IMG/VR virus record: IMGVR_UViG_3300045988_121917
Span: 1-64,000 of that record
Reading direction: 5' to 3' (one strand)
DNA: 64,000 bases
DNA from: a virus
The notes under the pieces were generated by a model. That model saw nothing but the letters and a program-made list of their open reading frames with translations. It had not been told where the DNA came from and made no database searches. The translations under genes were made by a program, and so were the position numbers. This document shows, one piece after another, positions 11,226 to 58,000 of this stretch (positions are counted from its first letter, which is position 1; each line of letters opens with the position of its first letter).

Positions 11226-11232
11226 ATTATAT

Positions 11233-13918: not shown

Positions 13919-13931
13919 AAAAGGAGAATAA

Positions 13932-15910
<1,979 letters not shown>

Positions 15911-35770: not shown

Positions 35771-35844
35771 TTTATCCATCGCAAAAACCATATATAGTGT
35801 TAAGACTTAAAAAATTTTACTAAATATAGATGGAGGGATACAAT

Positions 35845-38163
35845 ATGTTAGAAGTTCAAAAACGAAATGGTGATATTGTCCCATTTGATAAAGAAAAAAT
35901 TATTGACGCAGTAAATAGAGCGATGATTGAAGTAGATAAAATCCTTTATGAAACAGATACTTCAAAAGATATTGCCACTGAAATTGAAGAAATGGCTAAA
36001 CGCTCTAAGACAACTATTTCTGTAGAAACTATTCAAGATTGCGTAGAAGATTTATTGATGCAATCTGAAAGAAGAGATGTTGCAAGAGCGTATATTCGTT
36101 ATAGATATAAGCAAGAAGCAAAGAGAGAACATGAGGCAGTTTTTATTAAAACTTATAGTGAAAAATTGGAAGCCCGCAATGTTCAAAATCAAAATGCTAA
36201 TGTAGATGAACATTCTTTTGGTGGACGTATGGGTGAAGCAAGTTCAGTTATGACAAAAAAATATGCTTTAGATTATATCGTATCTAAAATGTCAAGAGAT
36301 AATCATTTAAACAATGAGATTTATATTCACGACTTAGATAGTTATGCTGTTGGAATGCATAATTGTTTGTCACTACCTATAGATGATTTACTCAGAGATG
36401 GTTTTAATACTCGCCAAACTGATGTTCGTCCTGCTCAATCAGTTAATACAGCTTTTCAGCTTTTAGCAGTATTATTTCAATTACAATCATTACAGCAGTT
36501 TGGAGGAGTATCTGCTACTCACTTAGACTGGAGCATGGTTCCTTATGTTCGTAGAAGTTTTTATAAGCATTTCTTAGATGGTGTTAAATATTGTCAAAAA
36601 GGTCAGATGCTTGGATTAGCCGGAATTTATGAAGATTTTGATTTATCTAATGCAAAAGATATGTGGATTAAAGCTGATGCTTCTATTAATGATGATGTAT
36701 TTGTTAGAAATGAAGCTGCTTATAAATATGCTATGGATATGACAACAAAAGAAACTTATCAGGCTGTAGAAGGAATGTATCATAATCTTAATACATTGCA
36801 ATCTCGGAGTGGAAATCAGTTACCTTTTACTTCTATTAATTATGGCACATGTACTTTACCAGAAGGAAGATTGGTAACAGAAGCTTTATTAAATGTATCT
36901 ATTAAAGGTATTGGAAAGCTTCATAAAACTTCTATTTTTCCTTGTGGAATTTTCCAGTGTATGAAAGGAGTTAATCGTGAAGAAGGAGACCCAAATTACG
37001 ATTTATTTAAACTCGCATTACGTTCAACCGCCACAAGACTGTACCCAAATTATGCTAATGTAGATTGGTCTGGAAACGCAGGATATGACCCAGACGACCC
37101 GACGACTTACTTCAGTACAATGGGATGCAGAACTGCCAACGGATGGGATATCAATGGTTTCGGCCAAAAGAAGGATGGACGTGGAAATATTTGTCCTGTA
37201 ACAATTATTTTACCTACATTAGCGATGGAAGCTAAACAGAATTTTATGTCTCAATATGCTTTAACTGACGAAGATGCAAAAGAAGCTTTTGCAGTTGAAT
37301 ATTTCATGACTCTTTTAGATGAAAAAATTCATCAGGCAAAAGATATGTTAATTGAACGTTTTGATTGGATTTGTTCTCAGGATGCTTCTGCCGCAACTTT
37401 TATGTATGAGAATGGTACAATGAAAGGATATATTCCAGAAGAAGGAATAAGAAGTGCATTGAAGCATGGAACTTTAGCATTAGGTCAGTTAGGACTCGCT
37501 GAGACTCTTCAAATTCTTATTGGTACAGACCATACTACTCCAGAAGGAATGAAACTGGCTAAAAGAATTGAACAGTTATTTAAAGATAGATGTGCGGAAT
37601 TTAAAGAAGAATATAAACTTAATTTTGGAGTATATTATACTCCGGCTGAGAACCTTTGCTATAAAGCTTTAAAAAACTTTAAAGCAAAATATGGTGTAAT
37701 TGAAAATGTAAGTGACAAAGAATTCTTTACTAATTCAATTCATGTTCCAGTGTGGAAAAAAATGTCTCCATTTGAAAAGATTGATATTGAATCTCAATTA
37801 ACTGGTTATTCATCTGCGGGATGTATTACTTATATTGAATTAGATTCCGGTATTAAAAATAATCTTGAGGCATTAGAGCAAATTGTAAATTATGCTATGG
37901 ATAAAGATATTCCATATTTTGCGGTCAATGTACCAAATGATACATGCCTTGAGTGCGGCTACACAGATGAATTTAATGATAGATGTCCTATTTGCGGAAG
38001 CACTCATATCCAACAGCTTAGAAGAGTTACTGGATATTTAACAGGAAATTATAAAACTGCTTTTAATCTTGGAAAACAAGATGAAGTTGAACATCGTGTT
38101 AAGCATGGAGGAAGAAGAGAATGGGCGCAGATAAAACCTGGCACGACAAAGAAGAATACTTAA
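35845..38163 (+). CDS. nrdD: anaerobic ribonucleoside-triphosphate reductase (class III RNR)
   Basis: ATP-cone-like N-terminus, C-terminal Zn ribbon CLEC...CPIC, and glycyl-radical motif RVTGYLTG. RBS GGAGGGA before the ATG at 35845. Confidence 0.9.
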   Translation: MLEVQKRNGDIVPFDKEKIIDAVNRAMIEVDKILYETDTSKDIATEIEEMAKRSKTTISVETIQDCVEDLLMQSERRDVARAYIRYRYKQEAKREHEAVFIKTYSEKLEARNVQNQNANVDEHSFGGRMGEASSVMTKKYALDYIVSKMSRDNHLNNEIYIHDLDSYAVGMHNCLSLPIDDLLRDGFNTRQTDVRPAQSVNTAFQLLAVLFQLQSLQQFGGVSATHLDWSMVPYVRRSFYKHFLDGVKYCQKGQMLGLAGIYEDFDLSNAKDMWIKADASINDDVFVRNEAAYKYAMDMTTKETYQAVEGMYHNLNTLQSRSGNQLPFTSINYGTCTLPEGRLVTEALLNVSIKGIGKLHKTSIFPCGIFQCMKGVNREEGDPNYDLFKLALRSTATRLYPNYANVDWSGNAGYDPDDPTTYFSTMGCRTANGWDINGFGQKKDGRGNICPVTIILPTLAMEAKQNFMSQYALTDEDAKEAFAVEYFMTLLDEKIHQAKDMLIERFDWICSQDASAATFMYENGTMKGYIPEEGIRSALKHGTLALGQLGLAETLQILIGTDHTTPEGMKLAKRIEQLFKDRCAEFKEEYKLNFGVYYTPAENLCYKALKNFKAKYGVIENVSDKEFFTNSIHVPVWKKMSPFEKIDIESQLTGYSSAGCITYIELDSGIKNNLEALEQIVNYAMDKDIPYFAVNVPNDTCLECGYTDEFNDRCPICGSTHIQQLRRVTGYLTGNYKTAFNLGKQDEVEHRVKHGGRREWAQIKPGTTKKNT

Positions 38164-38318
38164 AACAAGCAAAAGAATGTAAATATTGTAGAGAACTAGA
38201 TGCAGATGATACTTTATATATGGCAAACGACTGAGATGGCGGAGTAGGATTTGAATATATCAGGCATATTAAATACTGCCCTATCTGCGGCCGCAAGCTT
38301 TTTAATTGGGAGGAATAA
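38121..38318 (+). pseudogene. small zinc-ribbon ORF (CKYC...CPIC) interrupted by an in-frame TGA
   Basis: Frame-0 ORF from ATG 38121 to TGA 38232-38234. It continues in the same frame to TAA 38316-38318 and contains a second CxxC. Could be recoding, a pseudogene, or a sequencing error. Confidence 0.2.
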
Positions 38319-38323
38319 TTATA

Positions 38324-38803
38324 ATGCGTTATGCAGGAATTATTAAAAATGATTTTTCCGCCGCTCCTGGAATAAGTGTAACTTTTTTTACACAAGGTTG
38401 CCCTCACAAATGTGAGGGTTGCCACAATCCAGAGACTTGGGATTTTGAAGGCGGAGAAGAAGTTACTCATGATACTATTTTAGAGGTTATTGAAGCTATT
38501 ACTGCTAATGGATTACATCGTAATTTATGTATTATGGGAGGAGAGCCTCTTTGCCCAGAAAATCAATTTTTGACTAATTTAATTATTAATTCTGTTAAAG
38601 AAAAACTTCCTGACACTAAAATTTATTTATGGACAGGATATTGTTTAGAAGATTTAGATATGAGTAATAATAGAATTAAATCAATACTTGAGCAAGTAGA
38701 TTGCATTATTGATGGTCCTTATGATAAAACAAAAAGAGATGTTTCTTTATTTATGAGAGGTTCATCTAATCAACGAATTTTATATAAGGGAACTGATTAT
38801 TGA
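38324..38803 (+). CDS. nrdG: anaerobic RNR activating protein (radical SAM)
   Basis: CPHKCEGC CxxxCxxC cluster near the N-terminus, about 160 aa, immediately after nrdD. RBS GGGAGG. Confidence 0.85.
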   Translation: MRYAGIIKNDFSAAPGISVTFFTQGCPHKCEGCHNPETWDFEGGEEVTHDTILEVIEAITANGLHRNLCIMGGEPLCPENQFLTNLIINSVKEKLPDTKIYLWTGYCLEDLDMSNNRIKSILEQVDCIIDGPYDKTKRDVSLFMRGSSNQRILYKGTDY

Positions 38804-41025: not shown

Positions 41026-41400
41026 ATGTATACTTTAATTATAAATAATGGCGAATTACAATGCCATATTAAAAGCTTTACAGAAGGCTTAGAATTAAAA
41101 GAATTACCAGATAATTCTGGTAAGAAAGAAACTACAGCGGCTTTATATATTACCACTTATATTTCTGCAGATAATGGTGAAAATATAAATACTTTTGATA
41201 ATATTAGTTTAGTAGATTTTCTTCCATATTTTAAAGTTGATAATTCTATTAAGAATATAACTATTAAAGATGAAGAAAAAATTGTTTTTGAAACTACTAA
41301 ATATACGTCTATCTCAAATGCAAAAGGAGATTATGACCAAACTGCTGAAGTACCAGAATATTATATAGATATTTCTTTTCAAACAAATCCAAGACTTTAA
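41026..41400 (+). CDS. hypothetical protein
   Basis: 124-aa ORF with strong RBS AAAAGGAGAGAG. First gene of the radical-SAM operon. Confidence 0.45.
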   Translation: MYTLIINNGELQCHIKSFTEGLELKELPDNSGKKETTAALYITTYISADNGENINTFDNISLVDFLPYFKVDNSIKNITIKDEEKIVFETTKYTSISNAKGDYDQTAEVPEYYIDISFQTNPRL

Positions 41401-41414
41401 AAAGAGGTGATTGA

Positions 41415-42656
41415 ATGGCAAGAATAGTATATACAGGTCAGCCAATTCAAGCCTCTACTATTAATGACTATTATAATAGATTGGATGCTATTAGAACTTG
41501 GAATGGTAGATATTCTGCTATTTCTAATCGAGGAAGCGTTGGTAGTGGTGTTAGAATAACCAGCGCACAAATTATGAATGAAATTTTTAAAAGTGTTGTA
41601 GATACAAAAAATACTGTTTCATTTGTAAGTGGTGTTTCAATCTTAACTCCTATTGGAGTTAGTCAAGGCACTTCCGCAATTGGAAAAAAATCCATGGCTC
41701 AAATTGAAAAAAGTATTGGAATGATGGAACAAGCTTGTCGAGAATATTTTTCAAGCAATCGTGGAGGCTTTAATAGTTCTAATTATGGTGTTTTTGGTAG
41801 CTTTAGTTCTAATAGATCTGGACATAATGGCGCACATAGAATTTCTAATGATACCAGTTTTAATGTAATTGGTAATAATTCTAATAGAAGTGGTTATAAC
41901 GGTGGCCATAGAAGCGGTTATTTTGCTTCTAATAAAAGTAGTAATAATGCTTCTAATAGAAGAGGTTATAATAATGCTTTTAGAAATGGACATCATAATA
42001 CTTTTAACAGTGGATTTTTTAGTACCAAATGGGCAAGTAATAACGGTTCAGATTTTAGTTCTTTTGGAAGTAATAGTTCTAAATTTTCAGAAGTTCATAA
42101 TGGTAATCATAGTGGATTCAAAACCGGAAAATATCATCATCATTACTCTTATTGGGTATTTAACTGGGCCAGTAGTGGAAGTAAAGACGTTCAATTATCA
42201 GGTAATGCTCTTAAAAGAGGTAACTTCCAGGGCCATAACGGTTCTAAATACTCTGGAAATGGAAAAAATAGCACTAATAGAACTACTGTTAATAATGCTA
42301 AAAGAAGTTCTTTCCAAAAAGGTGGATATACTGCAAATAATAATACTAAATATACAGGACATACAACTGGTTGTTCTGGAAATAACTCTACTAATTTTTC
42401 CAGTGTTGGTACTCAATGCGTAGGAGATAATGCTTCTAATTATTCTGGAAATGCTACTGGATATACAGGTTTCTTTACTTCAAATTGTCCAAGTAATTTT
42501 AGTACAAATGATTCCAGTGTAAATACTTGTCCAAGTAATTTTTCTGGAGTAAATAGCAGTAATTTTAATTCTGTTAATACTGGTAATTTTAGTAATGTCG
42601 ATAAACGATGCTTTGTAGTTCATAGTAGCTATACTGTAGAAGGCGTTGATTTTTAA
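41415..42656 (+). CDS. Ser/Asn/Gly-rich repeat protein with Cys-containing C-terminal repeats, a candidate radical-SAM substrate
   Basis: Globular N-terminus of about 110 aa. Repeats SNRSGHNGAHR, SNRSGYNGGHR and SNRRGYNNAFR. Very many NxS/T triplets. C-terminal NCPSNFS and TCPSNFS repeats with 5 Cys. RBS AAAAGAGG. Confidence 0.55.
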   Translation: MARIVYTGQPIQASTINDYYNRLDAIRTWNGRYSAISNRGSVGSGVRITSAQIMNEIFKSVVDTKNTVSFVSGVSILTPIGVSQGTSAIGKKSMAQIEKSIGMMEQACREYFSSNRGGFNSSNYGVFGSFSSNRSGHNGAHRISNDTSFNVIGNNSNRSGYNGGHRSGYFASNKSSNNASNRRGYNNAFRNGHHNTFNSGFFSTKWASNNGSDFSSFGSNSSKFSEVHNGNHSGFKTGKYHHHYSYWVFNWASSGSKDVQLSGNALKRGNFQGHNGSKYSGNGKNSTNRTTVNNAKRSSFQKGGYTANNNTKYTGHTTGCSGNNSTNFSSVGTQCVGDNASNYSGNATGYTGFFTSNCPSNFSTNDSSVNTCPSNFSGVNSSNFNSVNTGNFSNVDKRCFVVHSSYTVEGVDF

Positions 42657-42686
42657 TATATTTTAAAAGAGTAAAAGGAGCTATTA

Positions 42687-44111
42687 ATGATAGAAAATAA
42701 TGAAAAAATTTATTTTACAAATATAACTTTATTTACTACTGCTTTATGTAATCTTAATTGCGGATATTGTTATATTTGTAAAGATGCTACTGGATGTTTA
42801 AAACAAATAGATGATGATTTGGCTAAAGATTTTGAAAATGGAAGTCAAATTAAACAAGTCTATGATGTTGATCCAGAAGCAGATAAACATATTAAGCATA
42901 TTACTTTATGGGGAGGAGAACCTTTTCTTCATATAGAACGTTTTATAGATCACTTTGAAGAATATACAAAGGCTTTTCCAAACTTTAATGAATTAGATAC
43001 TTCAACAAATTTTACTCTTCCAAACCAAGTTGAATCTTTAAAAAGATTATTTGATACAATTATTAAATATTATCATGGTAATCAAAAATTTCATTTTGAT
43101 CTTCAGGTCTCAATTGATGGGCCTGAAGAGATGAATGATTTGGGAAGAGGTAAAGGAGTTACTCAAAAGTTCTTAAAGAATTTTAGAGATTTATGTGAAT
43201 TAGAATTTGATGATTCTAAAATTGATTTATATGTTCATACTAAACCAACTTTTTCAAAACCTACATTTCATTTTGTAGATACACCAGAAAAAGCATATGA
43301 ATGGTTTGAATTTTTCGATAGAGAAATGTATCAGCCTTATAAGAATAGAAAAACTCGAAAATGGTGTTTCTTACCATGTCTTTTCAATTATGCAACTCCA
43401 GCAGAATGGACAAAAGATGATGGACTTGAAGTGGCAAAGATTTATCGTTCAATCCAAAAGGTAACTCCAAAAATAAAACAATTAGATGGATGGATTCCTA
43501 ATTATGAAACTTATATTCCAAGCGTAGAGTTCTTATTAGGACGATTAAAAGATAATAATTCATTTAATAAGAAAAAATGTTTGGATTGTTCAAAGCCATT
43601 CTGCGGCGGAGGATGCGGTTCATTTTCACATGTAGTAGTTCCTATCCATGATGGAAAATATACTATGTGTCATAGAGGTATGTTTGATGATTATGTAGAT
43701 TATCATAATAATATGAAAGACCATGCTGATATGAATGGACTTGCCGCAAAATATGTTCAGACAAATAATGAATCTGCTTGGATTTATGATAAAGATCAGT
43801 TCTTAAATCTTAAAAAGACTTTTGACAATCTTATCCTATATCCTCATCAAATTTTTTATACAGATTATGTTAAGTTTGTATATGAATATGCAAAAGCAGG
43901 TATCATTGATGAGAAATGGACTGATATGAGTAAAATTGATAAAACGATTGCTATTTTTGTTGATAAATCATGTTGTTTACAAGATTCATATATTATTACT
44001 GGCTCTTGGATAACATCAAATCCATTAGAAATTCCATTGTGGTATAATGGAGCTATGGATGTAGTTGAAGAAGAAATTGACAGAGTAATGGCGGAAAGAG
44101 GTATTGTATGA
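42687..44111 (+). CDS. radical SAM / SPASM-domain enzyme (anSME-like)
   Basis: CNLNCGYC cluster, GGEP motif, anSME-like VSIDGPEEMND, C-terminal Cys cluster CLDCSKPFCGGGCGS...C. RBS AAAAGGAG. Confidence 0.85.
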   Translation: MIENNEKIYFTNITLFTTALCNLNCGYCYICKDATGCLKQIDDDLAKDFENGSQIKQVYDVDPEADKHIKHITLWGGEPFLHIERFIDHFEEYTKAFPNFNELDTSTNFTLPNQVESLKRLFDTIIKYYHGNQKFHFDLQVSIDGPEEMNDLGRGKGVTQKFLKNFRDLCELEFDDSKIDLYVHTKPTFSKPTFHFVDTPEKAYEWFEFFDREMYQPYKNRKTRKWCFLPCLFNYATPAEWTKDDGLEVAKIYRSIQKVTPKIKQLDGWIPNYETYIPSVEFLLGRLKDNNSFNKKKCLDCSKPFCGGGCGSFSHVVVPIHDGKYTMCHRGMFDDYVDYHNNMKDHADMNGLAAKYVQTNNESAWIYDKDQFLNLKKTFDNLILYPHQIFYTDYVKFVYEYAKAGIIDEKWTDMSKIDKTIAIFVDKSCCLQDSYIITGSWITSNPLEIPLWYNGAMDVVEEEIDRVMAERGIV

Positions 44112-45502
44112 CATTTCAAGAACAGCAAGATTTACTTTTAAAAAATTATTTATTCAGATATGATAAAGATGAAAATTCTGTTGAATTTATTATTACATCT
44201 GCATGTAATCAAAAATGTGAGTATTGTTATTTATACAGATATGGCGATGAAATGTATCCTCCAGAAGCCAATAAGAAAGAAAATATTCTTAGAAACTTAG
44301 CTCTATTATTAGATTGGCTTGACGAAAATGATTACCAGTATACAACTTTTGATATTTTTTCAGGTGAGTTTTTTCAAATCCCTTATTGGGAAGATGTTCT
44401 AAATGTTTTTTATGAACATCAAATAAATACTCCTAACGTTCCAAGAAGAGATTTTGTTATTCCTACAAATATGTCTTTTCTTATGGATGATGAAAAAACA
44501 GCAAGAGTTGAATATTGGATGAATAGAGTCAGAGATGATGTAAAACATTTCAATGGCTTTTGGTTAAGTGTTTCTGTAGATGGACCAACAGAGTTAGAAT
44601 CTGTTGAAAGAGGACTTAAAAATGGTCAAATAAAACAAGACAAGTTTTATGATAAACTTTTTAAGTTTATTGCAAAGTATTCTCTTTCTTGTCACCCTAT
44701 GATTACAAGAGAATTTGTAAAGAATTATAAACGTAATTATGACTGGTGGATTGATAATATTATTAAATATAATGTTATCTTTAAGAAAGAAAATGGATGT
44801 GAAGTATATTCAATTCCAATGATGTTAGAGGTCAGAAATGCGGAGCAGTGGGATGAAGAATCTTTAAAGGATTATAGAGATTTCCTTCTTTATGTAGCGG
44901 AAAAAGACTTAAATACGCTTCATAACGGAGATTTAACAGATTTTGCATATCATATGGCAGATAACTTCTCTGATGGGATGATGAATATTGGAAAATATAA
45001 TCATGTACAGCCATACATATTAGCTCTTCCAGAAATACAACATAAATTACCATGTTCAATTCAAGGCGGTTCAATTTTTAGAGTCGGAGATTTAGCAATT
45101 GTACCTTGTCATAGAACTTGTTATCCTGATAAAGTTTATGGTTTTCTTGAATTAAATGAAGATAAAACTAAGATTATTGGAGTTCGTGGAGAAAATCCTA
45201 TGCTTGCATATAAAATTAAGACTCTTAATCAAAATCGTTCTTTTATGAAATGTGCTGGCTGTCCTATTAAAAGCTTTTGTATGAAAGGTTGTCTAGGAGC
45301 GCAATATGAAGATAGAAAAGAACTTTTCTGCGCTATTGATGAAGTATGTGAAATGTTTAAAACTAAATATCGTACTGTTAATGATATAGCTGAAAAATAT
45401 GGCGTTTATGATATTATTTTAAATGATTTGAAAATTCCAAAAGAAAGAAGGGAGTTTATAAAATATGCAAGAGATATTATCAACAGATACTTGTATGACT
45501 AA
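44108..45502 (+). CDS. radical SAM / SPASM-domain enzyme (anSME-like), paralog of the upstream gene
   Basis: CNQKCEYC cluster, VSVDGPTELES, C-terminal CAGCPIKSFCMKGC. ATGA-coupled to the upstream rSAM gene. Confidence 0.85.
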   Translation: MTFQEQQDLLLKNYLFRYDKDENSVEFIITSACNQKCEYCYLYRYGDEMYPPEANKKENILRNLALLLDWLDENDYQYTTFDIFSGEFFQIPYWEDVLNVFYEHQINTPNVPRRDFVIPTNMSFLMDDEKTARVEYWMNRVRDDVKHFNGFWLSVSVDGPTELESVERGLKNGQIKQDKFYDKLFKFIAKYSLSCHPMITREFVKNYKRNYDWWIDNIIKYNVIFKKENGCEVYSIPMMLEVRNAEQWDEESLKDYRDFLLYVAEKDLNTLHNGDLTDFAYHMADNFSDGMMNIGKYNHVQPYILALPEIQHKLPCSIQGGSIFRVGDLAIVPCHRTCYPDKVYGFLELNEDKTKIIGVRGENPMLAYKIKTLNQNRSFMKCAGCPIKSFCMKGCLGAQYEDRKELFCAIDEVCEMFKTKYRTVNDIAEKYGVYDIILNDLKIPKERREFIKYARDIINRYLYD

Positions 45503-46142
45503 TGAAGTTTCTATTTTCGATTTAGCTCAAGACATTATGTTTAAAAAACAATTCGCATTAATAGATGAGTTAGATTTTAGATTAGGTAAGATAAATACGA
45601 CTGATGATGTAATTGAATCAGCCAGATTGAAAATTTATTATATCTATTATTTTATGCTTGATAATAATGAAAAAGAGTATTTTACTCATATAAAAAACTT
45701 TATCATTTTGTCTAATAATGATTTAATTAAACGAATTAAAAATACTACTGTTGAAGGTTTTTTTGATGAAGGTAAAAATACGATTGAAGAAATATACTTG
45801 AATAAATTGTTTTTAGTTCTATTAAAAGAATATGCTCCAGAGTTAAAATATACAGATTATAAAGATGACGTTTTATCTAATATGAATAAGTATATTTATC
45901 TTTTAAATGCAACTTATTTTGATGATTTCAGCTTATTTCAAGATAATGTCTTATATGGAATTTGCATTGGAAATTCTGTAGTTGATTATAAAAAATTCTT
46001 AACGGCTGCAGAGTGGGATAGATTCCAATATAGCATTTATTATTTATTTTATGGTATTAAAGAATTTCCAACAGACAATGAAATATTAGATATTGAAAAT
46101 CGTATTGAGAGTAAGGTAGACCTTCTTTATGTAAAAGAATAA
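45465..46142 (+). CDS. hypothetical protein
   Basis: 225-aa ORF with RBS AAGGGAG. Overlaps the rSAM stop by 38 nt. The start could instead be 45496. Confidence 0.45.
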   Translation: MQEILSTDTCMTNEVSIFDLAQDIMFKKQFALIDELDFRLGKINTTDDVIESARLKIYYIYYFMLDNNEKEYFTHIKNFIILSNNDLIKRIKNTTVEGFFDEGKNTIEEIYLNKLFLVLLKEYAPELKYTDYKDDVLSNMNKYIYLLNATYFDDFSLFQDNVLYGICIGNSVVDYKKFLTAAEWDRFQYSIYYLFYGIKEFPTDNEILDIENRIESKVDLLYVKE

Positions 46143-46171
46143 AGAAGTAAAGAGTAAAAGGAGTATAGTAA

Positions 46172-46963
46172 ATGATTTTTATATTGCCATCTATTTATTA
46201 TAATTTTGAAGATAATGTTAATATTTTAGATATGTATAGCAATACAGTAAAAATCAAAGGCATCGAAGGCAATTTCCCATCTAACATTATGTGTGGTGGG
46301 ATTAATGCCTTAGACACCAGATATTTTGCACTGTATGATGATATTGTGGGTTGCGTAAATAGTTATTCAATACCATCTAAAATGTTATTTGTTGACTGCG
46401 GCAACCTCTTCCTTAATGAAAAAGAATATCTAAATCGTTTTGATAAGATATTATTTGAAGAATGGGAAAATAATGATTCTGCATATTATGAAATTGCAGA
46501 TTTTAATTTGATTGATTATGTAGTGAAACGTTATCCTAATATTCAAATTGCATTACATCAAAATGCTTTATTGAGATATAATTTAAAAGAGATTCAAGAT
46601 AAGATTGATAATTGTAAAAATATTAAATATATAATCTTACCAAGACGTTATGCTCATTTAAAAGTAAAAGGCGTACAAAAGATTTACTTAATGAGTTTTA
46701 CAAAGTGTAGAGATTGTGTAAATTATTGCGATTGTTTATCTGAAGAATCTCATTATATACTTGAATATAGTGGTCATTCTACTTTTAGAAAATGTACTAA
46801 AAGATTTTATAAAGACGATAATGAATTCTTTGAAGAATATAGAAATATTCCAAAAGATTTCTCATATGTTCTGTTTGATGACATCATTCCAGAAGATGCA
46901 AATGAAAGCTATACATTAATAATTAATTTATTTGAGAGAGGGCTTAAAAATGATTTATTATAA
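46172..46963 (+). CDS. hypothetical Cys-rich protein
   Basis: 263 aa, RBS AAAGGAG. Cys cluster CRDCVNYCDC. N-terminal IYYNF motif shared with the next gene. Confidence 0.5.
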   Translation: MIFILPSIYYNFEDNVNILDMYSNTVKIKGIEGNFPSNIMCGGINALDTRYFALYDDIVGCVNSYSIPSKMLFVDCGNLFLNEKEYLNRFDKILFEEWENNDSAYYEIADFNLIDYVVKRYPNIQIALHQNALLRYNLKEIQDKIDNCKNIKYIILPRRYAHLKVKGVQKIYLMSFTKCRDCVNYCDCLSEESHYILEYSGHSTFRKCTKRFYKDDNEFFEEYRNIPKDFSYVLFDDIIPEDANESYTLIINLFERGLKNDLL

Positions 46964-47948
46964 TTTATCCGGATTTTACGAACATTTTACTTTAAATAAA
47001 TTTATTTTGGAATTGCGTGATACTAATCCTGAATACTTCAGAGACGGAATTAAAATTGGAACCTTCTTTGGTAACTTTCCATTTTGCACTTGGGACGGCG
47101 GAAGAAACTTTCCATTTTATCGCCAGGTCACAAAAGAAGAGATTGAAAAAATTAGAGACTTTTATAAGTTCTATAATATTCCTCTGAGATTAATTTTTAC
47201 TAATTCCGCAATTGAGGAAGAGGATTTATATGATCCATTCTGTAATCTTCAAATGAAATTGCTTGAAGATGGCAATAATGAGGTTGTTGTAAATTCTCCT
47301 CTTTTGGAGCAATATTTAAGAGAGACATATCCAGATTTTAAATATATTAGTTCTACAACTAAATGTTTAAATAAAGAAAAATTCCTTAAAGAACTTCAAA
47401 ATCCAGATTATTATCAAGTTTGTTTAGATTATAATTTGAATAAAGATATGGATATGCTTGAGAATATTCCTCAAGAATTACGAGGTAAATGTGAATTTTT
47501 ATCAAATGCAATTTGTCATAGCCATTGTCCTATTAGAAAATCACATTATCTCGATACAAGTAAAACTAACTTGACATATGGTAAACATAAATACAGTATC
47601 ACTGCAAAATGTCAAATTCATGGTGGTATTAATGACCCTGATACTCTTGGAAAACAGAATAATTTAACTTGGGAAGATATCCAAAAGTACAATAGTATGG
47701 GATATAAATACTTTAAATTTGAAGGAAGAACATTGCCGAGCGCAGATATTTTTTCTAATTATCTATATTATTTATTTAAACCAGAATATATTCCAATTAT
47801 TGTAAGTAAATCTTCATATGTACCAGGAATATTCTTTAATAATCCAAATTCTCAGTTCTATTTAGATATGGTAAAAAGAACTGATGCTTCATTAGATGCT
47901 GATAATGGTGTATATGCAGATGAATGCGTAATGAGTTGGCCATTCTAA
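46950..47948 (+). CDS. hypothetical Cys-rich protein, distant paralog of the upstream gene
   Basis: ATG at 46950 (MIYYNLSGFY) after a GAGAGAGGG RBS. Cys cluster CEFLSNAICHSHC. The track TTG at 46932 is unlikely to be the start. Confidence 0.5.
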   Translation: MIYYNLSGFYEHFTLNKFILELRDTNPEYFRDGIKIGTFFGNFPFCTWDGGRNFPFYRQVTKEEIEKIRDFYKFYNIPLRLIFTNSAIEEEDLYDPFCNLQMKLLEDGNNEVVVNSPLLEQYLRETYPDFKYISSTTKCLNKEKFLKELQNPDYYQVCLDYNLNKDMDMLENIPQELRGKCEFLSNAICHSHCPIRKSHYLDTSKTNLTYGKHKYSITAKCQIHGGINDPDTLGKQNNLTWEDIQKYNSMGYKYFKFEGRTLPSADIFSNYLYYLFKPEYIPIIVSKSSYVPGIFFNNPNSQFYLDMVKRTDASLDADNGVYADECVMSWPF

Positions 47949-48017
47949 TAGAATTAACTCTTCTTGTTTTTTAAAATCTGTAGAGAGAAAGTTTAAAAAT
48001 GAGGAGGGTTTTTAACT

Positions 48018-48602
48018 ATGCTGGAAACAATTGGATCAATTGTCTTAAAGTATTGGGTTGAATTTATTTTAGGCTTAATTGTAGCTGGCGGCGGTTTTTT
48101 AATAAAACGTTATTTAAGACTTGAAAAAGAAGAGCGCCAAAGAGATCAAAAAGAATATTTTGATAATGTGCTTAAAAAAATTCAAAGTGAAAATCAACAG
48201 ATATTAAAATCTTTAGAAAAAGAACATGATAAGATGGATCAAAATTCTGAAGATAAATATAATGAAATTAATACCAAGGTTGATAAAGCTTTAGAAGCAG
48301 GTAGAGAAGAATCTAAAGCAGATGATGCCGTTCTTGAAAAAGAAATTTCTGCGATGAAAAAAAATATTACAGCTTTAACCGCAGGCGTTTTATCAATGCA
48401 AGGAAAAGAATTTATAAATAATTGTAGAAAACTTTTAGCTGAAGATCATATTATTACTCTTGATGAATGGGAAGAATTAGATGCAGACCATACAGCCTAT
48501 AACGGATTAGGTGGTAATCATAAAGGTGACCATTTATTTTCATTAGTAAAAAAGAAAGTCGAAGCTGGATTTGCAGAAGACCAACGTCCAAAAGAAAAAT
48601 AA
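48018..48602 (+). CDS. membrane-anchored coiled-coil protein
   Basis: N-terminal TM helix then K/E-rich coiled coil. RBS GAGGAGGG. Last gene before the bidirectional terminator. Confidence 0.5.
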   Translation: MLETIGSIVLKYWVEFILGLIVAGGGFLIKRYLRLEKEERQRDQKEYFDNVLKKIQSENQQILKSLEKEHDKMDQNSEDKYNEINTKVDKALEAGREESKADDAVLEKEISAMKKNITALTAGVLSMQGKEFINNCRKLLAEDHIITLDEWEELDADHTAYNGLGGNHKGDHLFSLVKKKVEAGFAEDQRPKEK

Positions 48603-48646
48603 AAAAGAGGGGATAGAATTTAATTCTATCCCCTATTATTTTTTAT
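48601..48646. terminator. bidirectional rho-independent terminator
   Basis: A-run, then AGGGGATAGAATTTAATTCTATCCCCT hairpin, then T-run. Lies between convergent + and - gene blocks. Confidence 0.85.
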
Positions 48647-48934
48647 CTTAGAAAAAATCTTATTAGTTATATCAATTATCTCTTGTCCATAAGTAGCGAG
48701 TAAATCGGATAATAACTCCTCTTGGTCATAAGTTAATTGAATATCATAACTAAACATTGCGGCGTGTGTTATTTCGTGGCATAAAACTTGTTTAACTTTT
48801 GCGAGAGAAAGTTTATTATTAATATAGATTTTCTTTGTATCATCAACGCAGGCTCCAAGAGTATAAGAGCCATCTTTCTTTTTAAGTATTGGGTTATATT
48901 GGGGATACAAAGACGACTCGCCAATTATCCCCAT
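48626..48934 (-). CDS. small HExxH-motif protein, putative metallopeptidase-like
   Basis: 102 aa with HEITHA. Confidence 0.4.
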   Translation of the reverse strand: MGIIGESSLYPQYNPILKKKDGSYTLGACVDDTKKIYINNKLSLAKVKQVLCHEITHAAMFSYDIQLTYDQEELLSDLLATYGQEIIDITNKIFSKIKNNRG

Positions 48935-49450: not shown

Positions 49451-49873
49451 TTAAGCCACCCTTTCTACGATTAGATTAGCATTTTGAACATTAATCGTTT
49501 GATTTGAAGTATTAGTTACCCCAGCTGTTGAACAGCATCCAGTAGGTACATCAATGTATACACATGAAGCTACATTAAAATACTGCTCTACTGCGGCAGG
49601 GGTAACAATCATCTGGGCAGTGCGAACTGCTTCACCATCTATAGTGATAGTTAATGAGATAGCTTCTGCGGTGCCGCCAGTTGGAACCGCAATATTACCT
49701 GTAAAAGTTACTTTAAATCTTGAGCGGCATTGATTATTAGATAAGCCTCTCATTTTGATATTTCCACTTCCCTCGGTATGAATAATTGAACAATTACCAG
49801 GGATTCTTGTTGTGATAAATACAACATTATCATTTGTATTTACGGTTTGTACTATATTATTAGTTAGTTCCAT
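49451..49873 (-). CDS. hypothetical protein
   Basis: 140-aa ORF, Thr/Asn/Val-rich, several Cys. Confidence 0.45.
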   Translation of the reverse strand: MELTNNIVQTVNTNDNVVFITTRIPGNCSIIHTEGSGNIKMRGLSNNQCRSRFKVTFTGNIAVPTGGTAEAISLTITIDGEAVRTAQMIVTPAAVEQYFNVASCVYIDVPTGCCSTAGVTNTSNQTINVQNANLIVERVA

Positions 49874-49944
49874 ATATAGTCTCCTTTCAGGAATTTAATA
49901 GGTTAGAGGGTTGGCAGACCTTCTAACCATTAAACTAATTTAGA

Positions 49945-50712
49945 TTAAAGTGTACTACATCCGCAGTTATGATATCCAGAATATGGATTAGCAACTGTAT
50001 ATGCAGGAATAGGTGTTGGATTTAAAGCATTAATTAAATAGCTATTTTGAGCTGCTTGACTAGCTTGTAATCTAAGATCAGAATTTTTGGCAGTTAATTC
50101 AGCAATCTTATCATGTAAAGCTTGTGTTTGCATCTCTTGAAGAGCACTTAAAACGCTTCTGGTATTAGCGTTTTGATTTTCCATTAGGTCTCTGGTTGCA
50201 TCAGAAACTGTTCTACGAGTTGAGCACTCTTGGTCTGCTAAATTATAATTTAATTGAGCAAAATTTTGAGCGTCCTCATATCTGCTTTGGCAGCAACACT
50301 GTTGCAACTGAGTTCCTAAGTTAGTAATACCTGCATTAATAGTATTAGTATTTTGCATGTCTGCGATTGATTGCTGAGTAATATTATTATTAACAGCAGC
50401 AAATCCATTTAACATGCCTGTGTTCATGGCATAAAAACCATCACAAACACCACTATTTACGCCATCAATTTTTCTTTCAATGTTGGCGAAATCTGAGGTT
50501 AAAATATAACCGTCTGTAATTCCAGAGCCTGTGGAACCTCCTCCGAAGAGTCCATTTCCATATCCTCCCCATCCTGCAAAGCAGAAAAGGAATAAAATTA
50601 TAATCCACCAAGCTCCATCTCCACCGAATCCAAATCTATTATCATTTCTATTGGCTCCAGTAGCTGCGGCAATGTCGGCTAAACTATAGCCATTTGTTGC
50701 GTTATTGAACAT
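49945..50712 (-). CDS. Gly-rich membrane protein with C-terminal coiled coil
   Basis: TM segment WWIIILFLFCFAGW flanked by Gly-rich tracts. Confidence 0.5.
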   Translation of the reverse strand: MFNNATNGYSLADIAAATGANRNDNRFGFGGDGAWWIIILFLFCFAGWGGYGNGLFGGGSTGSGITDGYILTSDFANIERKIDGVNSGVCDGFYAMNTGMLNGFAAVNNNITQQSIADMQNTNTINAGITNLGTQLQQCCCQSRYEDAQNFAQLNYNLADQECSTRRTVSDATRDLMENQNANTRSVLSALQEMQTQALHDKIAELTAKNSDLRLQASQAAQNSYLINALNPTPIPAYTVANPYSGYHNCGCSTL

Positions 50713-52017: not shown

Positions 52018-55000
52018 CTATTTAACTTTAATCCAAATTCTTCCATTAACTTTTACGTTTCCTGTGCCCCAAACTTCATACTCTGGAATTTCAGAAACTG
52101 TACCAACAATACGGTCTGGATATTCTCTGACTTCTTCACGAGTCATTTTTGAAATAGTTCCATTAGGTCCAGAACAAACTGGGTCACCAGCTTGATATGA
52201 ATCTCTATCTTCATAAGGATAAGCTAATACCCTACCTGAGACCGCAATTGGTGTTTTAGTTTGTTCAGTTTTTCCAATCGCAAAGCCAAAAGTATCTGAT
52301 ACTATATTTGCTCCTGGCTGAAGACGTTTAGTTGATTGAACCAAATCTCCTAGGCCAGTTTCAATAACACATTGGCCTGGTTTAATATTTATAGTATTAC
52401 GATATTCGGCATAGTCATTCCATACTGCGCCATAAACTTTTCCCGCATACACACTAGTAGTATTATAACCTGCATGACCATTTCCAAAATAATAACTATT
52501 GATAGTTGATGAACTGTTTCTACTCCAAGATTGATAATTAATCCATATATCTCCAGAATACGCATCTGGAATAAAATTAAATTCTTTTCCGCCTACTAAA
52601 AAATCATGACCATGTTTTGCAACTAAACCACTATTATTAATTAAAGCTCCAGTCATTGTGTCACCAGATTTTTTAACATAATTACCATTAAGCGTTCCAG
52701 TATAATTACCAGTTGTAAGAATTCTATTCCAATTACCCCAAGCTGTTGCACTTGTACCAATACGAGTCCAAAGATTACCATTTGCAGTATAAGCTATTTC
52801 AATTGGATAACCACCAGACAAATCACCGCCTAAACCGTAGCTTCTCCAACTTAATAAACCAATATATGAACCTCCATCAGATAGACTATAAGTACCATTC
52901 CCTTTAAAATTTAAAGTCATACCTCTTGGAGTATCTTGTGGAGTTCTTGTTGCACTTCTAGTGTCATAAGAATCTAATCTAGCTGCTCTAGCAGCCTCTC
53001 CATTAAGATATCCATTAAATTGAGTTGCAGTAACCTGACCATTAAAATATGCAGTTCCATTTACATATAAATTATAGTCCGCAGTATCTGCATCTCTAAC
53101 AGCTCTATTGATGTATAAAGCATTATGATGTATTTGTACAGCTGGAATTACACCTAAAGAATTCCATTTTGTTTTATTACTTGGTCTAATTCCATTAACA
53201 AATATCCATCCTGCATGAGCATACATATTTGCAAATACTACAGATTCTCTGTTAGGAGTAGAGTAATAAACGCCTGATTCTAAACCTCCAGTAACGCCAC
53301 CATGATCAGCTTTTCTCCAAGTTAAGCTACAATTTCCATCTCCTATATTCACATTTCCATTTGCTGGTGCTAAAAGAATGTCTCCATAAGAGGTAGCTAT
53401 TTTTAAATGAGTACTAGATTTAAAAGTATTATCGATATTTCCATTAAAAGTAATAATAGCTCTTTGAGTATTATTACTAGCATTGAATCTAATATGAGAT
53501 TCATCTCCAGTAGATTCATTACCATAAATATTAAAATCACGATAAATATGACCGCTTCTCCATCTACGATTACTTAAGCCAAGATCCATTGCATTTGTTG
53601 AATATGGAGATATATAATTTGTGCTTCCATATAAAACATAACTATCTCCTGAAGTAGAAGTCTCAGAATTAGTAGTGCGTTTTCCCCAATACCAATTTCC
53701 ATCATTATTAACGCATAATCCATACCCTAATGTATTCGTAGATAATAAGATAGATACATGATCATTACCTTTAAATACAGTAGCTAATCTATGTCCGCCA
53801 ATTCCCCAAGCATTATTTGAATTGATATTTATTGAAACAGCTTTTGAATTATAGTTACGAATAAAATTGCTATCAGTCATATGCCAGCCACCGCCATAGG
53901 TCTCAGAATACCATCCTCCAGTTCCGATACTTCTAAACCAACTATTTGAATATACTTCATGCCAAGGATATCCAATCGTTCCTAAATTTCCATCTGTTGA
54001 AGCAACAGTTTTATTAAAAATAAAAGGAATATTTGCGCTATTATATAAATGACACCAATTAGAGTTTTGAGAACCTATTGTAATAGTATTTCCATTAGAA
54101 CTAATCTGTAATAGTCTTGGAATTTCAGCATTGCTTTTTGTGGTAGAAATTAACCAAGTTGAAACTCCACCAACATTAGTCCAAATTCCCATTCTACCAT
54201 TTGTAGCATCTAAATGAATATGTCCAGTACTATTATAAACATCTACAAATCTCTCACTTGTATCATTTGCTTTAATACATAAGTGACCAGTCATGGTATC
54301 GCCAGTTTTTAAAACATATCTACCATCTAATGTATAGGTATAATTATCAACATCTAATACTTGAACCCATTTAGAACCTACCACATTTCCACCTCTAACA
54401 ATTTTATAATAAATACTTTTATCATTAAAGGGAATTGCAACATCTGTATAATAATTATTTAATTGATTAGTATGTCTGTTTCTTAATATGTACCACCAGG
54501 CACTTGACGGAGTGTCATTAGTATCTACGGCAGCTCCAGCAGTACCACTTATATTCAACCAAGTTAATCCACCTACATCTCCAGAATTTGTACTACTATT
54601 TTCTCCTAATATACCATGAAAACATGATTTATTTGGTATAGTAAGGTTTCCATCTATGTAAGAAGCTCCATTAACTCGTAATCTATAAGCAGAATCATTT
54701 GAGTTGTAGTTATATCCAATATTAGTATATTGAAACCATGAATAACCATCTATATTAATAGCCCAATTATTCGCTCCAGAATGAGAACAAATGTCTTGTG
54801 TAAAAACCCAATTAGAATTATCTGCATTTCCAAGATATAATGGTTGTGTAGAACGATTCATTATACGAGTTGCACCAGATAATTGTCCTGCAACATCTGC
54901 GGTTCCATTAAAAGGCTGTCCCCAAATATTTCTGGTATTTAATAATTTAGTTGCTGCATAGCTACTATTTGGTTTATCAATTGAGGCAGTTACATTTTCT

Positions 55001-58000
55001 AAAGTAGTAACAAAGTCAATATTCCAATTAAAGCACCATTGTTTATATTCATAATTTTGAAAACCTACAACAACATCATGAATTTGAATTTGTGGATAAC
55101 TCCAACTAGTTGCAACATCTCCAATATAAATGACACTATTAGAAGCTGTTTCTCCATAATAAACGGGTAAATTAGATTTTGATAAGTCCCCATTATATCC
55201 TATAGAATAAGCAGTGCATTGACTCCATACACCATCATAATAATTATACCCTTTAATAGTATATTCACAACTTGTATTTGTAGAATAATTATAAATAGAA
55301 ACTTTAAAACCTAACATCGTATTAGAACGTCGTTGTGGTAAAGTAATTCTTAAATATCCTGTTTTAACATCAGCTGTAGTTACATAACTTCCTCCGTCTG
55401 GAAAAGCAATAAAGCTACTTTTTCCAACCGCACTAAAAGCTGCATAACCCTTATTATTAATAGAAGCAACATTGGTATTACCAGTTCTAAAAATCCATCC
55501 TCTATTAGAAGTGCTATTCATAGTAAAATAAGTTGCCCAATCATTGCAAACAGCTCCATGAGAGTCAAATGTATCAACTCCTGCAAAAGCAATTCCATAA
55601 GTAGGAAGTGAACCAGTTCCTCCATAGCCACCTCCATATAAAGAAATACCTTTTCCAGTATTAGAAGCTGTATTTGTAATTCCAATATGAGTTGCATATA
55701 ATGTATCAGAAAAATATCCAGTACCAGAAACTATTAAACGATGATTTGAATTAGCATCTGTGCCTATTCCAACTTGGCCATTTTGATTGATTCCAATAGC
55801 AATTACATCTGAATTACCTCGATTATCAGCATATAATCTTAATAGATTGCCTACTTCAGAACCAGTTCCAATATATTTTAATCCATATCCATAATATTGC
55901 TTAGTAGAAGTTCCAGAACCAATTTGCCATAACCAATTATCAGTATTATTTCCATTCATCCAAATTACTGGATTTTGATTATTAGCAGTAAAGTTTTTAT
56001 AAATACCACCTGAATTTGCCAATGGCTCAATAATTCCATTATCTCTAATAACTAATAGATTTTTCCAAGTAGATGCAGAATCTTCACTTTGTTGAAAAGT
56101 AAATACAGGAGTATTTGCAGTTGAATCATCTGTTGTTAATAATCTTTGTCTATATGTATCTGAGTCCCAATAAATACTTGTTCCTGCTCTAGTCATATAT
56201 ATATCATTAGCTACTCTTATATTACCTTGAAATAAAGAATCACCTTTAACATAAAAAGTATAACTTCCTACAGGAGAAGTATCTCCAATAGATACTTGAG
56301 TTGAACTGGCATAATGATGAGAAGCTTGTATTGCATTAGCTCCATTAGTCCATACTAATCTATTTGCGGTTTGTCCATATAAATTAAGATTAGTTACATA
56401 AAGAGTTCTCCATGCTAATGCTTGTGTACCTAAATCATATGCGTTAGTTTGGTTAGGATTTACATGGCTATTAAAAGTAAAATAACCTCCACCCTCCTTT
56501 ACAAAACGCATATTTCCATTATCAGAAATATCCGTTTGAATATATCCATATCTTTTAGAAGAAGTATCTCCTTTTGCAGTATACCATCCAATCCAATTAT
56601 CTCCAGATAAATATTTATTACCAAACCATCCTGCATTAGCTCTAATAGTTGCTGTGCCAGTACCACTACCAAAAATAAAAATTGATGGAATTTCTTTAGA
56701 ATCTTTTTTTCTATATCCAAAATAAACAGTATTAGAATTATTTGTTCCGCCAAAATTTATTTCATTATTAAATTCCGCATAAACTTTCATAGTACCAGCA
56801 TCTGAAGTAAAACCACCTAAAGCTTTTACTCCACCAGCAGTATTTATAGAATCAGAATCTGTATTTTCTACAGCAAATTTTTTTCCACCATAAATTCTAA
56901 CATAACTGTTGTCTTTCATATAAATACCGCCGCCATGAGCGGAATTTTGCCATCCTGTAGAAGATGTATTTGAGAAAAACCAGCCTGAAGAAGTCACATT
57001 GAAAAAATTTGGATTAGTCTTTGCATTAGCTGTTGTAGAAACTTTAACATCTGCCCAATAATAATTATTTATATAAGAGGTATAATTTGAAGAATCTAAA
57101 ACTGTACTCCAAGTTTCATCCCAAATAGAATCACCTTTTTCGCCAGCTTTTGCGCCTCTTATTGCCATATGCGGTTTAGCATCTGTAGTAATCGCTAATT
57201 GAGCGCCCCATCCAGAACCATCCCAACCAAAAGTCAAAACATGTGAATCTCCTACTGGAGGCTTTCCCGTTTTTGTAATTGAACTGGCTAATGAATAAGT
57301 TACTCTACTTTGATATTTATCTGAATTTATTTGATAGTTAATGTTTTCTTGTCTATTACTTGGATTTAAAAATAAGCTATTTGCTCTACTGGCCACAGTT
57401 GCGCTATCTGCGTTACCTTGAAATCTTGTAGATTGAATTAAATTAAAACCAGAAATACTTGCTGGCAAAATTAACTCCAATAAAGCTCCAGTTAATTTAG
57501 TAACTACACCTGTTTCACCAGTAGTTGCATTAGCAATTTTACTAATTTTAAAAGTAACATCATGATCTAATCCAGCTGTACTTACAGAATGAGCAACCCT
57601 AAAATTAGATGGATTATAAACGTACATATCTGTACCATTTTCTCCACCCCATAACCAAGTTGGTTGTCCACCTTGGCCGCTCCAATTGAATGTCATAGGT
57701 AAAGAAGTATTTCCACCTCTACCTAATTTAGCCGCTACAGTTGAAGTATCAGCATTGCCTTGAAAGCGTGTAGCTTGTAATAAATCAAAGCCAGATATTT
57801 TTGTTGGTAAATATAAATCAACTGCGGAACCAGATAAATTAGTCGCAGTACCACTTCCACCTTTAATTGCATCAGCAGTAGAAGCAATCTTAAAAGTTAC
57901 ATTATGGTCTAATTTTGCGCTATCACTGGAATGACCACCGATCCCATTTAAATCATAAGTTTTATCATTAGAACCAGTAATGGTAAAATACCAAACTGGA

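Follow-up and report, generated by a model that had tools for sequence, protein, structure and literature searches.

The stretch of viral DNA analysed here, which we call the window, comprises 64,000 nucleotides (positions 1 to 64,000 of IMG/VR virus record IMGVR_UViG_3300045988_121917), and the system under study is a putative protein maturation cassette of seven genes, A to G, on its plus strand. Eight plus strand open reading frames (ORFs), all co-directional and closely packed, occupy positions 41026-48602, with overlaps between C and D, D and E, and F and G. B (41415..42656, 413 amino acids (aa)) encodes the putative substrate protein and precedes the genes for two radical S-adenosylmethionine (SAM) enzymes, C (42687..44111, 474 aa) and D (44108..45502, 464 aa), the second of which is assigned to the SPASM group below. 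F (46172..46963, 263 aa) and G (46950..47948) encode paralogous U32-like proteins; the likely start of G is the ATG at 46950, giving 332 aa, and the listed ORF begins at a TTG at 46932, giving 338 aa. The initial annotation of this DNA described a seven-gene co-directional operon, of which the direction and tight packing hold and the count does not, eight ORFs being listed.

C and D contain the CX3CX2C motifs CNLNCGYC and CNQKCEYC, respectively, both also have GGEP/SGE and SxDGP motifs, and the two align as full-length paralogs (hhalign probability 94.7 over 368 columns). C matches PF04055 with 32.8 bits, above the cut-off of 29.5; D reaches 22 bits, below the cut-off, and its C33, C37 and C40 are invariant in 22 homologs. 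Judged by these motifs and matches, both belong to the radical SAM superfamily. As the criterion for a SPASM domain we used the motif C-x(9-15)-G-x4-C ... C-x2-C-x5-C-x3-C ... C, which corresponds to two auxiliary 4Fe-4S clusters. The auxiliary cysteines of D (C316, C334, C382-x2-C385-x5-C391-x3-C395 and C414) are invariant in 22 sequences down to 30% identity, and we assign D to the SPASM group on this seven-cysteine motif and not on the hidden Markov model (HMM) TIGR04085, against which it scores 17.8 bits with a cut-off of 27. C lacks the motif and appears to be twitch-like, with one auxiliary cluster predicted: only three C-terminal cysteines are conserved in a ten-sequence divergent alignment, the segment aligned to the CX2CX5CX3C of D holds no cysteine, and the window copy has extra, non-conserved Cys. 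The earlier description of two paralogous SPASM enzymes is therefore correct as to paralogy and the three shared motifs, with the full set of SPASM cysteines present in D but not in C.

The nearest characterized families of both enzymes are maturases of peptides or proteins. Their NCBIfam neighbors are GggB, PapB, QhpD, HxsB and cyclophane formers, at 12-57 bits with cut-offs of 170-650, and C is matched best, always below cut-off, by peptide maturases and by a twitch-domain model. A profile of D finds CteB, the SCIFF maturase (5wgg), as its best PDB relative (E 4.5e-9); the PDB sequence search with C gave nothing significant. We collected 180 homologs of D, nearly all unnamed metagenomic proteins. 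Two other identities were tried and rejected. A QueE- or NrdG-type activase, raised in the initial annotation as the contrary possibility, is represented only by a QueE-like PHROG that matches the N-terminal part of C at 1e-4, and the real NrdG of the phage is a separate gene. Maturation of the anSME/formylglycine type, which that annotation had proposed, is not supported, with TIGR03942 scores of 28.0 and 20.5 bits against a cut-off of 349, and serine is among the least conserved residues of B. Searches with defense-system models returned only generic radical SAM core matches to viperin.

B consists of an N-terminal domain (41415-41759), a disordered region rich in Asn, Ser, Gly and aromatic residues (about 41760-42614) and a conserved C-terminal segment, VVHSSYTVEGVDF, at 42615-42653. 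All of the sequence features first reported for it were found: three SNRxGxNxxxR units (SNRSGHNGAHR, SNRSGYNGGHR and SNRRGYNNAFR), NxS/T sequons, a tail with two CPSNFS units, and five cysteines in the last 94 residues, to which Cys108 is to be added. Of the repeat region's 286 residues, 19% are Ser and 19% Asn, with 13% Gly and 8% Phe; the region holds 25 NxS/T where shuffled sequences hold 14.0 +/- 2.9 (z = 3.8). An AlphaFold2 (AF2) model built with 19 family sequences predicts three helices (residues 13-29, 51-67 and 90-114) at a predicted local distance difference test (pLDDT) value of about 70; the full-length model has a pLDDT of 39. The PDB sequence search with the N-domain profile gave nothing significant.

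When the N-domain was searched against 1.84 billion representative proteins, 25 relatives of B with a single shared architecture were recovered; a word-indexed search with the same domain returned only three fragments, and a locus search anchored on B found none in IMG/VR and one locus in the JGI metagenomes. Across the family the N-domain spans approximately 113 residues, with Tyr20, Arg22, Arg27, Thr64, Phe70, Glu98, Glu105 and Cys108 invariant, and the proteins end in a conserved F/Y-x-V-E-G-(I/L/V)-D-F. The middle region is highly variable in length and composition and always rich in Asn, Ser, Thr and aromatics, and in some members His or Cys is highly abundant, as in repeated C-x-T-V-H-S. 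The variable regions of 18 members show i/i+2 periodicity (S.N z = 7.1, N.S 6.4, F.S 6.2, T.H 8.2) as well as C..V at 11.6. Cysteine is not common to the repeat region across the family, and the sactipeptide or ranthipeptide thioethers first put forward are accordingly not a general chemistry here. In one member, P0265, the B module is preceded by a Laminin_G_3 domain (E 9.8e-24), for which there is a match (1.4e-11) to a 'virion structural protein' PHROG.

We examined constraint on B in 12 close variants, one being the window copy and 11 coming from close IMG/VR relatives. The length is exactly 413 aa in 12/12 with zero indels, a constancy not usual where disorder is predicted, while 6-19% of amino acids differ from the window copy; no other protein of the block is as divergent, B being at 81-94% identity compared to 94-99.6% for C. 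Within the repeat region the positions invariant over the 12 variants are 4/4 of Cys, 3/3 of Trp, 2/2 of Pro, 83% of Phe and 75% of Arg, followed by Gly (68%), Tyr (67%), Asn (57%), Ser (34%) and Lys (31%), and aromatic character is retained at 90% of 50 positions. The ratio of nonsynonymous to synonymous substitution rates (dN/dS) is 0.29 in the repeat region and 0.21 in the N-domain, and 0.05-0.09 in C, D, F and G. The dN/dS value, the fixed length and the pattern of invariant residues indicate that the repeat region is under purifying selection and constrained in length, and that its aromatic and cysteine positions appear to matter most. Diversifying selection on B overall was rejected on the same dN/dS. 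N-glycosylation of the sequons was also dropped: 10/40 sequon positions are fixed among the close variants, and the Ser/Thr at +2 is kept at 52%, compared to 56% for other Ser/Thr. Because sequons are not preferentially conserved, we read their enrichment as probably compositional or periodic.

The two cysteine-rich proteins of the initial annotation, F and G, are the distant paralogs it took them to be (hhalign probability 93.6, E 2e-7), and a profile seeded with F recovers G proteins at 2.9e-18. Although both window proteins score below PF01136 (Peptidase_U32), 6/25 aligned G homologs match this family (best E 5.9e-6), as do two of the 182 G homologs collected, by precomputed hits. The AF2 model of G has a pLDDT of 87, and its only significant Foldseek match in the PDB is the U32 peptidase Mk0906 (5d88; E 4e-7, template modelling scores 0.44/0.56). 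C158, C189, C193 and C221 of G are invariant and C46 is kept in 90% or more. G is thus probably a distant TIM-barrel member of the Peptidase_U32 family, on homologs and fold, and F its paralog, a relationship that the initial annotation had missed. The characterized U32 proteins are Fe-S-dependent, O2-independent hydroxylases, including the UbiU/UbiV pair and RNA hydroxylases, with prephenate as their apparent oxygen source and a mechanism that is unsolved (a 2024 review, PMC11574389). Our literature search found no U32 protein that acts on a protein, or that is part of a RiPP-like (RiPP, a peptide made by the ribosome and modified after translation) or phage cassette.

The remaining two cassette genes flank this core. 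A (41026..41400, +, 124 aa in the ORF list) opens the conserved block, and by eye its sequence looks beta-rich; the gene has a dN/dS of 0.19, is 30% identical to its counterpart in the related locus L013 and travels with the block. Searches of Pfam, NCBIfam, PHROG, defense models and PDB sequences gave no family match for A. E (45465..46142, +, 225 aa), whose start overlaps the end of D, looks helical by eye; Pfam, NCBIfam and PHROG searches found no family for it, and the PDB sequence search nothing significant. H (48018..48602, +, 194 aa), with an N-terminal transmembrane segment and a coiled coil, was first counted as the membrane coiled-coil protein of the operon. It adjoins the cassette and is not a member: in loci L013-15 its homolog stays beside RuvC on the opposite strand, and A-G lie approximately 3 kb away in a tail-fiber/holin operon, with five late genes, m_136 to m_169, between. 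This arrangement separates A-G from H, and the conserved, mobile unit is the seven genes A-G (41026-47948).

We looked for the cassette in other genomes, referring to related loci by L numbers. The 50,697 deposited phage records gave no match, either by megablast of the region or by tblastn of B and D; D homologs sit on metagenomic contigs of up to 250 kb, and the carrier phages are about 195 kb with their own replication machinery. The initial annotation had asked whether the same gene order recurs, and it does: C is followed by D in all 13 distinct contexts examined, on phage contigs, at 30-52% identity. A B-like protein lies 5' of C-D in every locus having that DNA, down to about 30% identity. 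The N-domain profile of B matches the ORF directly 5' of C in L013, L061, L020 (5e-10), L057 (2e-6), L016 (3e-4) and L021 (8e-4), ranks the upstream ORF first, weakly, in L058, L018 and L059, and in L024 has two ORFs upstream of C-D as its only matches. With the NCBIfam and CteB matches above, this retained linkage bears out the pairing of a repeat protein with tandem maturase-type radical SAM enzymes.

The loci differ in what surrounds B-C-D. L001-L012, with 90-98% identity in D, have the gene order of the window. L013-15 (48-52%) run from a tail-fiber-like protein of 1787 aa through A, B, C, D, E, F and G to a holin homolog and further genes, with H, RuvC and dUTPase beyond the cassette on the opposite strand. 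L018 (34%) keeps all seven positions and has in-frame TAG codons. In L058 the order is a fusion of a radical SAM enzyme with a family-2 glycosyltransferase (GT2), a small ORF, the B-like gene, C, D, a small ORF, a U32 pair and ThiF; in L059 it is YcaO, B-like, C, D; and in L057 a B-like gene with SNGSKSNG repeats precedes C and D, then a lysozyme/M23 protein. L016 has A-like, B-like, C and D, and in addition a third radical SAM enzyme, encoded separately next to a tail-fiber gene and a (CSG)n-repeat protein. In L024 the C-D pair is present twice, each time with a small B-like ORF, and there is one G-like gene. L020 leads from tail-fiber-type genes through A-like, B-like, C, D and two small ORFs to a holin and a GH25 endolysin with no U32 gene, and L061 from a tail-fiber C-terminus to B and C.

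Accessory genes beside B-C-D are accordingly a U32 pair (window, L013, L018, L058), a single U32-like gene (L024), YcaO (L059), or the radical SAM-GT2 fusion and ThiF (L058); no U32 gene occurs in L020, L057 or L059, and none could be confidently recognized in L016, where a 340-aa cysteine protein tried as a U32 member was unsupported (hhalign probability 12). The A position is taken by a small ORF of 107-132 aa, with positional analogs in L016, L018, L020, L024 and L058, and the E position, 3' of D, is always filled by an ORF of 72-233 aa, small and of low conservation. The core is B-C-D; the A and E positions are poorly conserved and the tailoring enzymes interchangeable.

Placement varies as well. 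The cassette directly follows tail-fiber-type genes in L013-15, L061 and L020, and A-G shifts as one block from the early strand, its place in the window, to the tail-fiber-holin interval in L013-15. The initial annotation set the cassette inside a replication/nucleotide module, a placement that is not general among relatives, which often have it between tail-fiber and holin/lysin genes. The cassette is not tied to the replication module and has a recurrent site beside tail-fiber and lysis genes.

Several of these contigs have features of their own. The L020 contig has an integrase and was binned with a Clostridia metagenome-assembled genome (MAG); L024 is a 175-kb contig binned with a Clostridium MAG, its B-like/C/D sets lying at 1320-4191 and 8147-11422, approximately 7 kb apart. 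The minus strand of L016 at 12646-15901 encodes the tail-fiber gene (phrog_22609, 1.5e-25), the 458-aa third radical SAM enzyme with C-terminal cysteine clusters, and a 227-aa protein whose N-terminal half is the (C-S-G)n repeats and whose C-terminal half looks folded, a layout the reverse of that of B; this is a second, different system on the 250-kb contig that also holds the cassette. In L058 the GT2 fusion (5437-7287, 616 aa) stands two genes 5' of the B-like protein, which is full of N-x-S units (NVSGFNSSN...). In-frame TAG codons occur at L018 7558-11419 (8), L057 6332-11368 (4) and L059 6322-11621 (9) in several genes, while the genes end in TAA or TGA, and on this codon usage all three are taken to be TAG-recoded phages.

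In the window the genes 5' of the cassette encode the DNA polymerase III alpha subunit, guanylate kinase, NrdD with a small activase, dUTPase and RuvC. NrdD and activase lie at 35830-38803 (+); NrdD has E 8e-146, and the adjoining NrdG-type activase (38306-38803, 165 aa, Fer4_12 8.5e-36) is the third radical SAM protein of the phage. As the phage encodes NrdD and a radical SAM activase, it evidently replicates in a strict anaerobe. The phage is one of anaerobic gut-type bacteria, and the hosts of cassette carriers are probably Clostridia/Lachnospiraceae. GC content in the cassette region is approximately 28-33%. The weak terminator that had been placed after the RuvC-like gene was not called by our terminator scan, and only a weak AT-rich hairpin with a T-run is visible there. 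The strong bidirectional terminator annotated at 48.6 kb was found at 48608-48634 as an intrinsic terminator with a 12-bp stem, 5 GC pairs and T-runs on both strands, and it divides the plus strand block from convergent late genes.

Those late genes, on the opposite strand 3' of the cassette, encode an M78-like peptidase, three unknowns, a holin (phrog_13712, 2.6e-32) and a 2171-aa protein. The first (48626-48934, -) is a 102-aa HExxH protein of Peptidase_M78/IrrE-like type (phrog_1233) that converges on the terminator. The last (52018-58533, -) has no Pfam or PHROG match; only its C-terminal 163 residues are conserved, at 67% to the 1787-aa fiber-like protein that precedes the cassette in L013, and its N-terminal and central parts are strongly divergent even among the close relatives L001-L012, which suggests a host-range determinant. 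A two-gene module at 49451-50712 (-) encodes a 255-aa protein with a Gly-rich hydrophobic N-terminal part and Cys-rich motifs (CCCQ..., C-terminal NCGCSTL; phrog_16490) and a 140-aa protein ending in NLIVERVA (phrog_20016). The module recurs at L013 15273-16502, L057 6332-7411 and L060 (Butyrivibrio virus Ceridwen) 6155-7450; it adjoins the cassette in the window, L013 and L057, and in L060, a 40-kb Lachnospiraceae siphophage, it stands 3' of the endolysin without any radical SAM genes.

We read A-G, with moderate confidence, as a phage-borne RiPP-like protein maturation cassette with B as its substrate. From the genomes we infer that role for B, along with the type of chemistry and the destination of the product. 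B is most likely the substrate because a substrate with core enzymes and swappable tailoring enzymes is the pattern by which RiPP clusters evolve, and its architecture and gene neighborhood fit the definition of a RiPP precursor, with modification and cleavage putative. The three-helix N-domain would serve as a protein-like leader or handle, through which C (twitch, one auxiliary cluster) and D (SPASM, two), both lacking a RiPP recognition element (RRE), would engage the disordered region. There the enzymes would abstract side-chain hydrogens and form intramolecular cross-links, C-C links to aromatics of the cyclophane type being the most likely and thioethers possible where cysteine occurs; the conserved aromatic and cysteine positions, together with the twitch/SPASM pair, suggest such radical cross-linking. 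The presence of the U32 pair suggests an anaerobic oxidation step, in which F and G would then add O2-independent tailoring, most plausibly hydroxylation, and the anaerobic setting indicated by NrdD/NrdG fits both O2-sensitive radical SAM and O2-independent U32 chemistry. As we find no dedicated protease or exporter, the product probably stays a protein, on or near the tail fiber or merely freed at host lysis. That absence, the fixed length of B, its conserved C-terminus and the Laminin_G_3 fusion make a small released peptide seem to us less likely than a modified protein, which may be virion-associated.

A number of results weigh against this maturation cassette, or leave it short of expected parts. 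All function beyond family assignment is genomic inference, including any modification of B. No NCBIfam equivalog could be assigned to C or D, whose scores are far below the cut-offs, and no reaction can be transferred from one. Pfam and NCBIfam found no RRE or PqqD domain in C, D, A or E, so that the RRE proposed for checking by the initial annotation did not appear; nor is there N-terminal room for one in C or D, where CX3CX2C begins at residues 21 and 33 and D aligns to CteB only from CteB residue 91. Family-library searches of the block found neither a leader peptidase nor a transporter, and iterative profiles of A and E had no matches beyond L013. Residues 116-413 of B have an AF2 pLDDT of about 30, that is, they are disordered or unpredictable and give no structural information. 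The triceptide motif [FYWH]-x-[SN] occurs 19 times in window B with 19.1 expected, which is no enrichment, and conservation at fixed offsets from aromatics is weak with no clear signal; the missing match makes membership in the triceptide family less likely and does not lower the possibility of similar chemistry. The characterized U32 enzymes act not on proteins but on a quinone precursor and on RNA bases (PMC11574389). In the window the cassette follows dUTPase and RuvC, not a tail fiber, and the locus search anchored on B gave one extra locus only, too few for a broad exclusion of B genes without radical SAM neighbors.

Of the other explanations the strongest, which we consider possible if rather unlikely, is a classical RiPP 'moron', in which B loses its N-domain leader by cleavage and its modified C-terminal region, set free by lysis or by lysogens, acts as a bacteriocin, toxin, signal or anti-defense factor and not as a part of the virion. 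The leader-plus-core layout suits it, as do the small B-like ORFs (76-188 aa) of some relatives, YcaO and ThiF as neighbors, and the small M78-type metallopeptidase gene just 3' of the cassette on the opposite strand, for which, however, we detected no match near the cassette in L013-15. Phage-borne RiPP clusters are documented, mostly for bacteriocins on temperate phages (10.1101/2020.10.01.322628), so the statement that the cassette is not a described phage function holds for this cassette and not for such clusters generally. A released product stays in contention because of L020, a temperate, prophage-like contig that has the cassette in the classic moron slot, between tail fibers and holin/endolysin. 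Against these points, the block has no conserved protease, transporter or immunity gene; the 'cores' would be up to about 300-360 residues, of fixed length and with a conserved extreme C-terminus, unlike known RiPP cores; a B module is fused to a virion-structural Laminin_G_3 module; and the carriers are the approximately 195-kb phages with their own replication machinery.

A more specific form of the maturation cassette would make B a hardened or adhesive virion appendage, anchored near the tail fiber by its three-helix domain, polycyclized by C and D, and hydroxylated on its aromatics by the U32 pair without oxygen. We put this forward tentatively as an improbable outcome; if true, B would be the first protein substrate of U32 oxidases and the first radical SAM-matured virion component.

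Modification of nucleic acids or nucleotides, with the U32 pair hydroxylating pyrimidines, the radical SAM enzymes elaborating phage DNA or host RNA, and B an unrelated neighbor, is very unlikely. It draws on the characterized enzymes RlhA and TrhP, which hydroxylate rRNA and tRNA bases where other U32 proteins act on a quinone precursor (PMC11574389), and on the position of the window block after the NrdD/NrdG, dUTPase and RuvC genes. That position is not kept, since in L013-15, L020 and L061 the block sits in a late operon away from nucleotide-metabolism genes, and the U32 genes are dispensable while B-C-D is constant, the two facts on which we chiefly discount a nucleic-acid role. Furthermore, C and D resemble peptide maturases and not QueE, NrdG or nucleoside enzymes, and the accessory YcaO, ThiF and GT2 point to peptide chemistry.

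The SPASM enzymes PqqE and MftC produce cofactors from peptides, and an anaerobic quinone or a pyrroloquinoline quinone- or mycofactocin-like small-molecule pathway, with B as a sacrificial precursor or an unmodified structural operon-mate, could be imagined here. It is the least probable reading, in spite of the work of UbiU/UbiV-like pairs in anaerobic quinone biosynthesis (PMC11574389) and the quinohemoprotein maturase QhpD as best NCBIfam match of D (34 bits), as family-library searches found no further cofactor-pathway genes in the block, a 300-residue hypervariable region is implausible as a sacrificial precursor, and the U32 genes are optional across the family.

Radical SAM/SPASM peptide maturation is well known in bacteria, and here it is conserved and widespread in large, apparently virulent-type phages and in a prophage-like contig. 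In the literature we searched there is no description of the cassette, and no paper connects RiPPs with U32 proteins or large phages with SPASM enzymes. New are a putative substrate family that combines a folded leader with a conserved C-terminal tag and, between them, a variable region as long as about 360 residues, its length fixed among close variants; a U32 pair as candidate tailoring partner, not known to have been linked to protein or peptide chemistry; and the phage late-gene context. If B is modified, this would open up new enzyme chemistry and give the U32 oxidases, whose mechanism is unsolved, a tractable protein substrate; phages in anoxic habitats would have a new route to build or arm their particles; and the B N-domain, the VEGxDF end and the C-D pair would provide a genome-mining handle on several hundred unannotated metagenomic proteins.

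Compared with known systems, the cassette is similar to those of the SCIFF and sactipeptide-ranthipeptide maturases (CteB, PapB, GggB) insofar as D has CX3CX2C and the full 7-Cys SPASM motif and the presumed precursor gene lies directly 5' of the enzyme. It differs in that its enzymes score below every equivalog cut-off and are without an N-terminal RRE, its substrate is 170-470 aa with a folded N-domain and no general cysteine, and it is phage-borne with neither protease nor exporter. The His-Xaa-Ser (HxsA-D) and triceptide systems (XyeB, GrrM, FxsB, YhhB) share a repeat-rich precursor, and Hxs also has tandem radical SAM maturases; the aromatics of window B are conserved among close variants, as would suit triceptide and cyclophane systems. 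HxsB, HxsC, XyeB, GrrM, FxsB and YhhB are weak HMM matches, 12-36 bits with cut-offs of 268-450, and the cassette substrate is far larger, has another leader and C-terminal motif, and shows no triplet enrichment.

For F and G the likeness is to UbiU/UbiV, RlhA and TrhP: two paralogous, probable U32-family proteins stand side by side in an anaerobic setting, and the conserved cysteines of G are consistent with putative Fe-S binding. Unlike UbiU/UbiV, the cassette has no UbiT-like partner, and the window proteins fall below PF01136, their family link running through 6/25 homologs and the fold. Among precursors with long protein-like leaders (PMC12537861), proteusin/NHLP and Nif11 precursors resemble B, which has a structured N-terminal domain of approximately 110 residues before its variable region; B differs in having no sequence match to the leader models and in the conserved C-terminal motif that follows the variable region. 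QhpD, the maturase of the quinohemoprotein amine dehydrogenase gamma subunit, is set apart from D by a score of 34 bits with a cut-off of 453, by dehydrogenase subunits that the cassette lacks and by an unrelated substrate. It is also the best NCBIfam match of D (E 1e-8), and offers the precedent of a SPASM enzyme whose cross-linked substrate is kept as a whole protein, with no peptide released.

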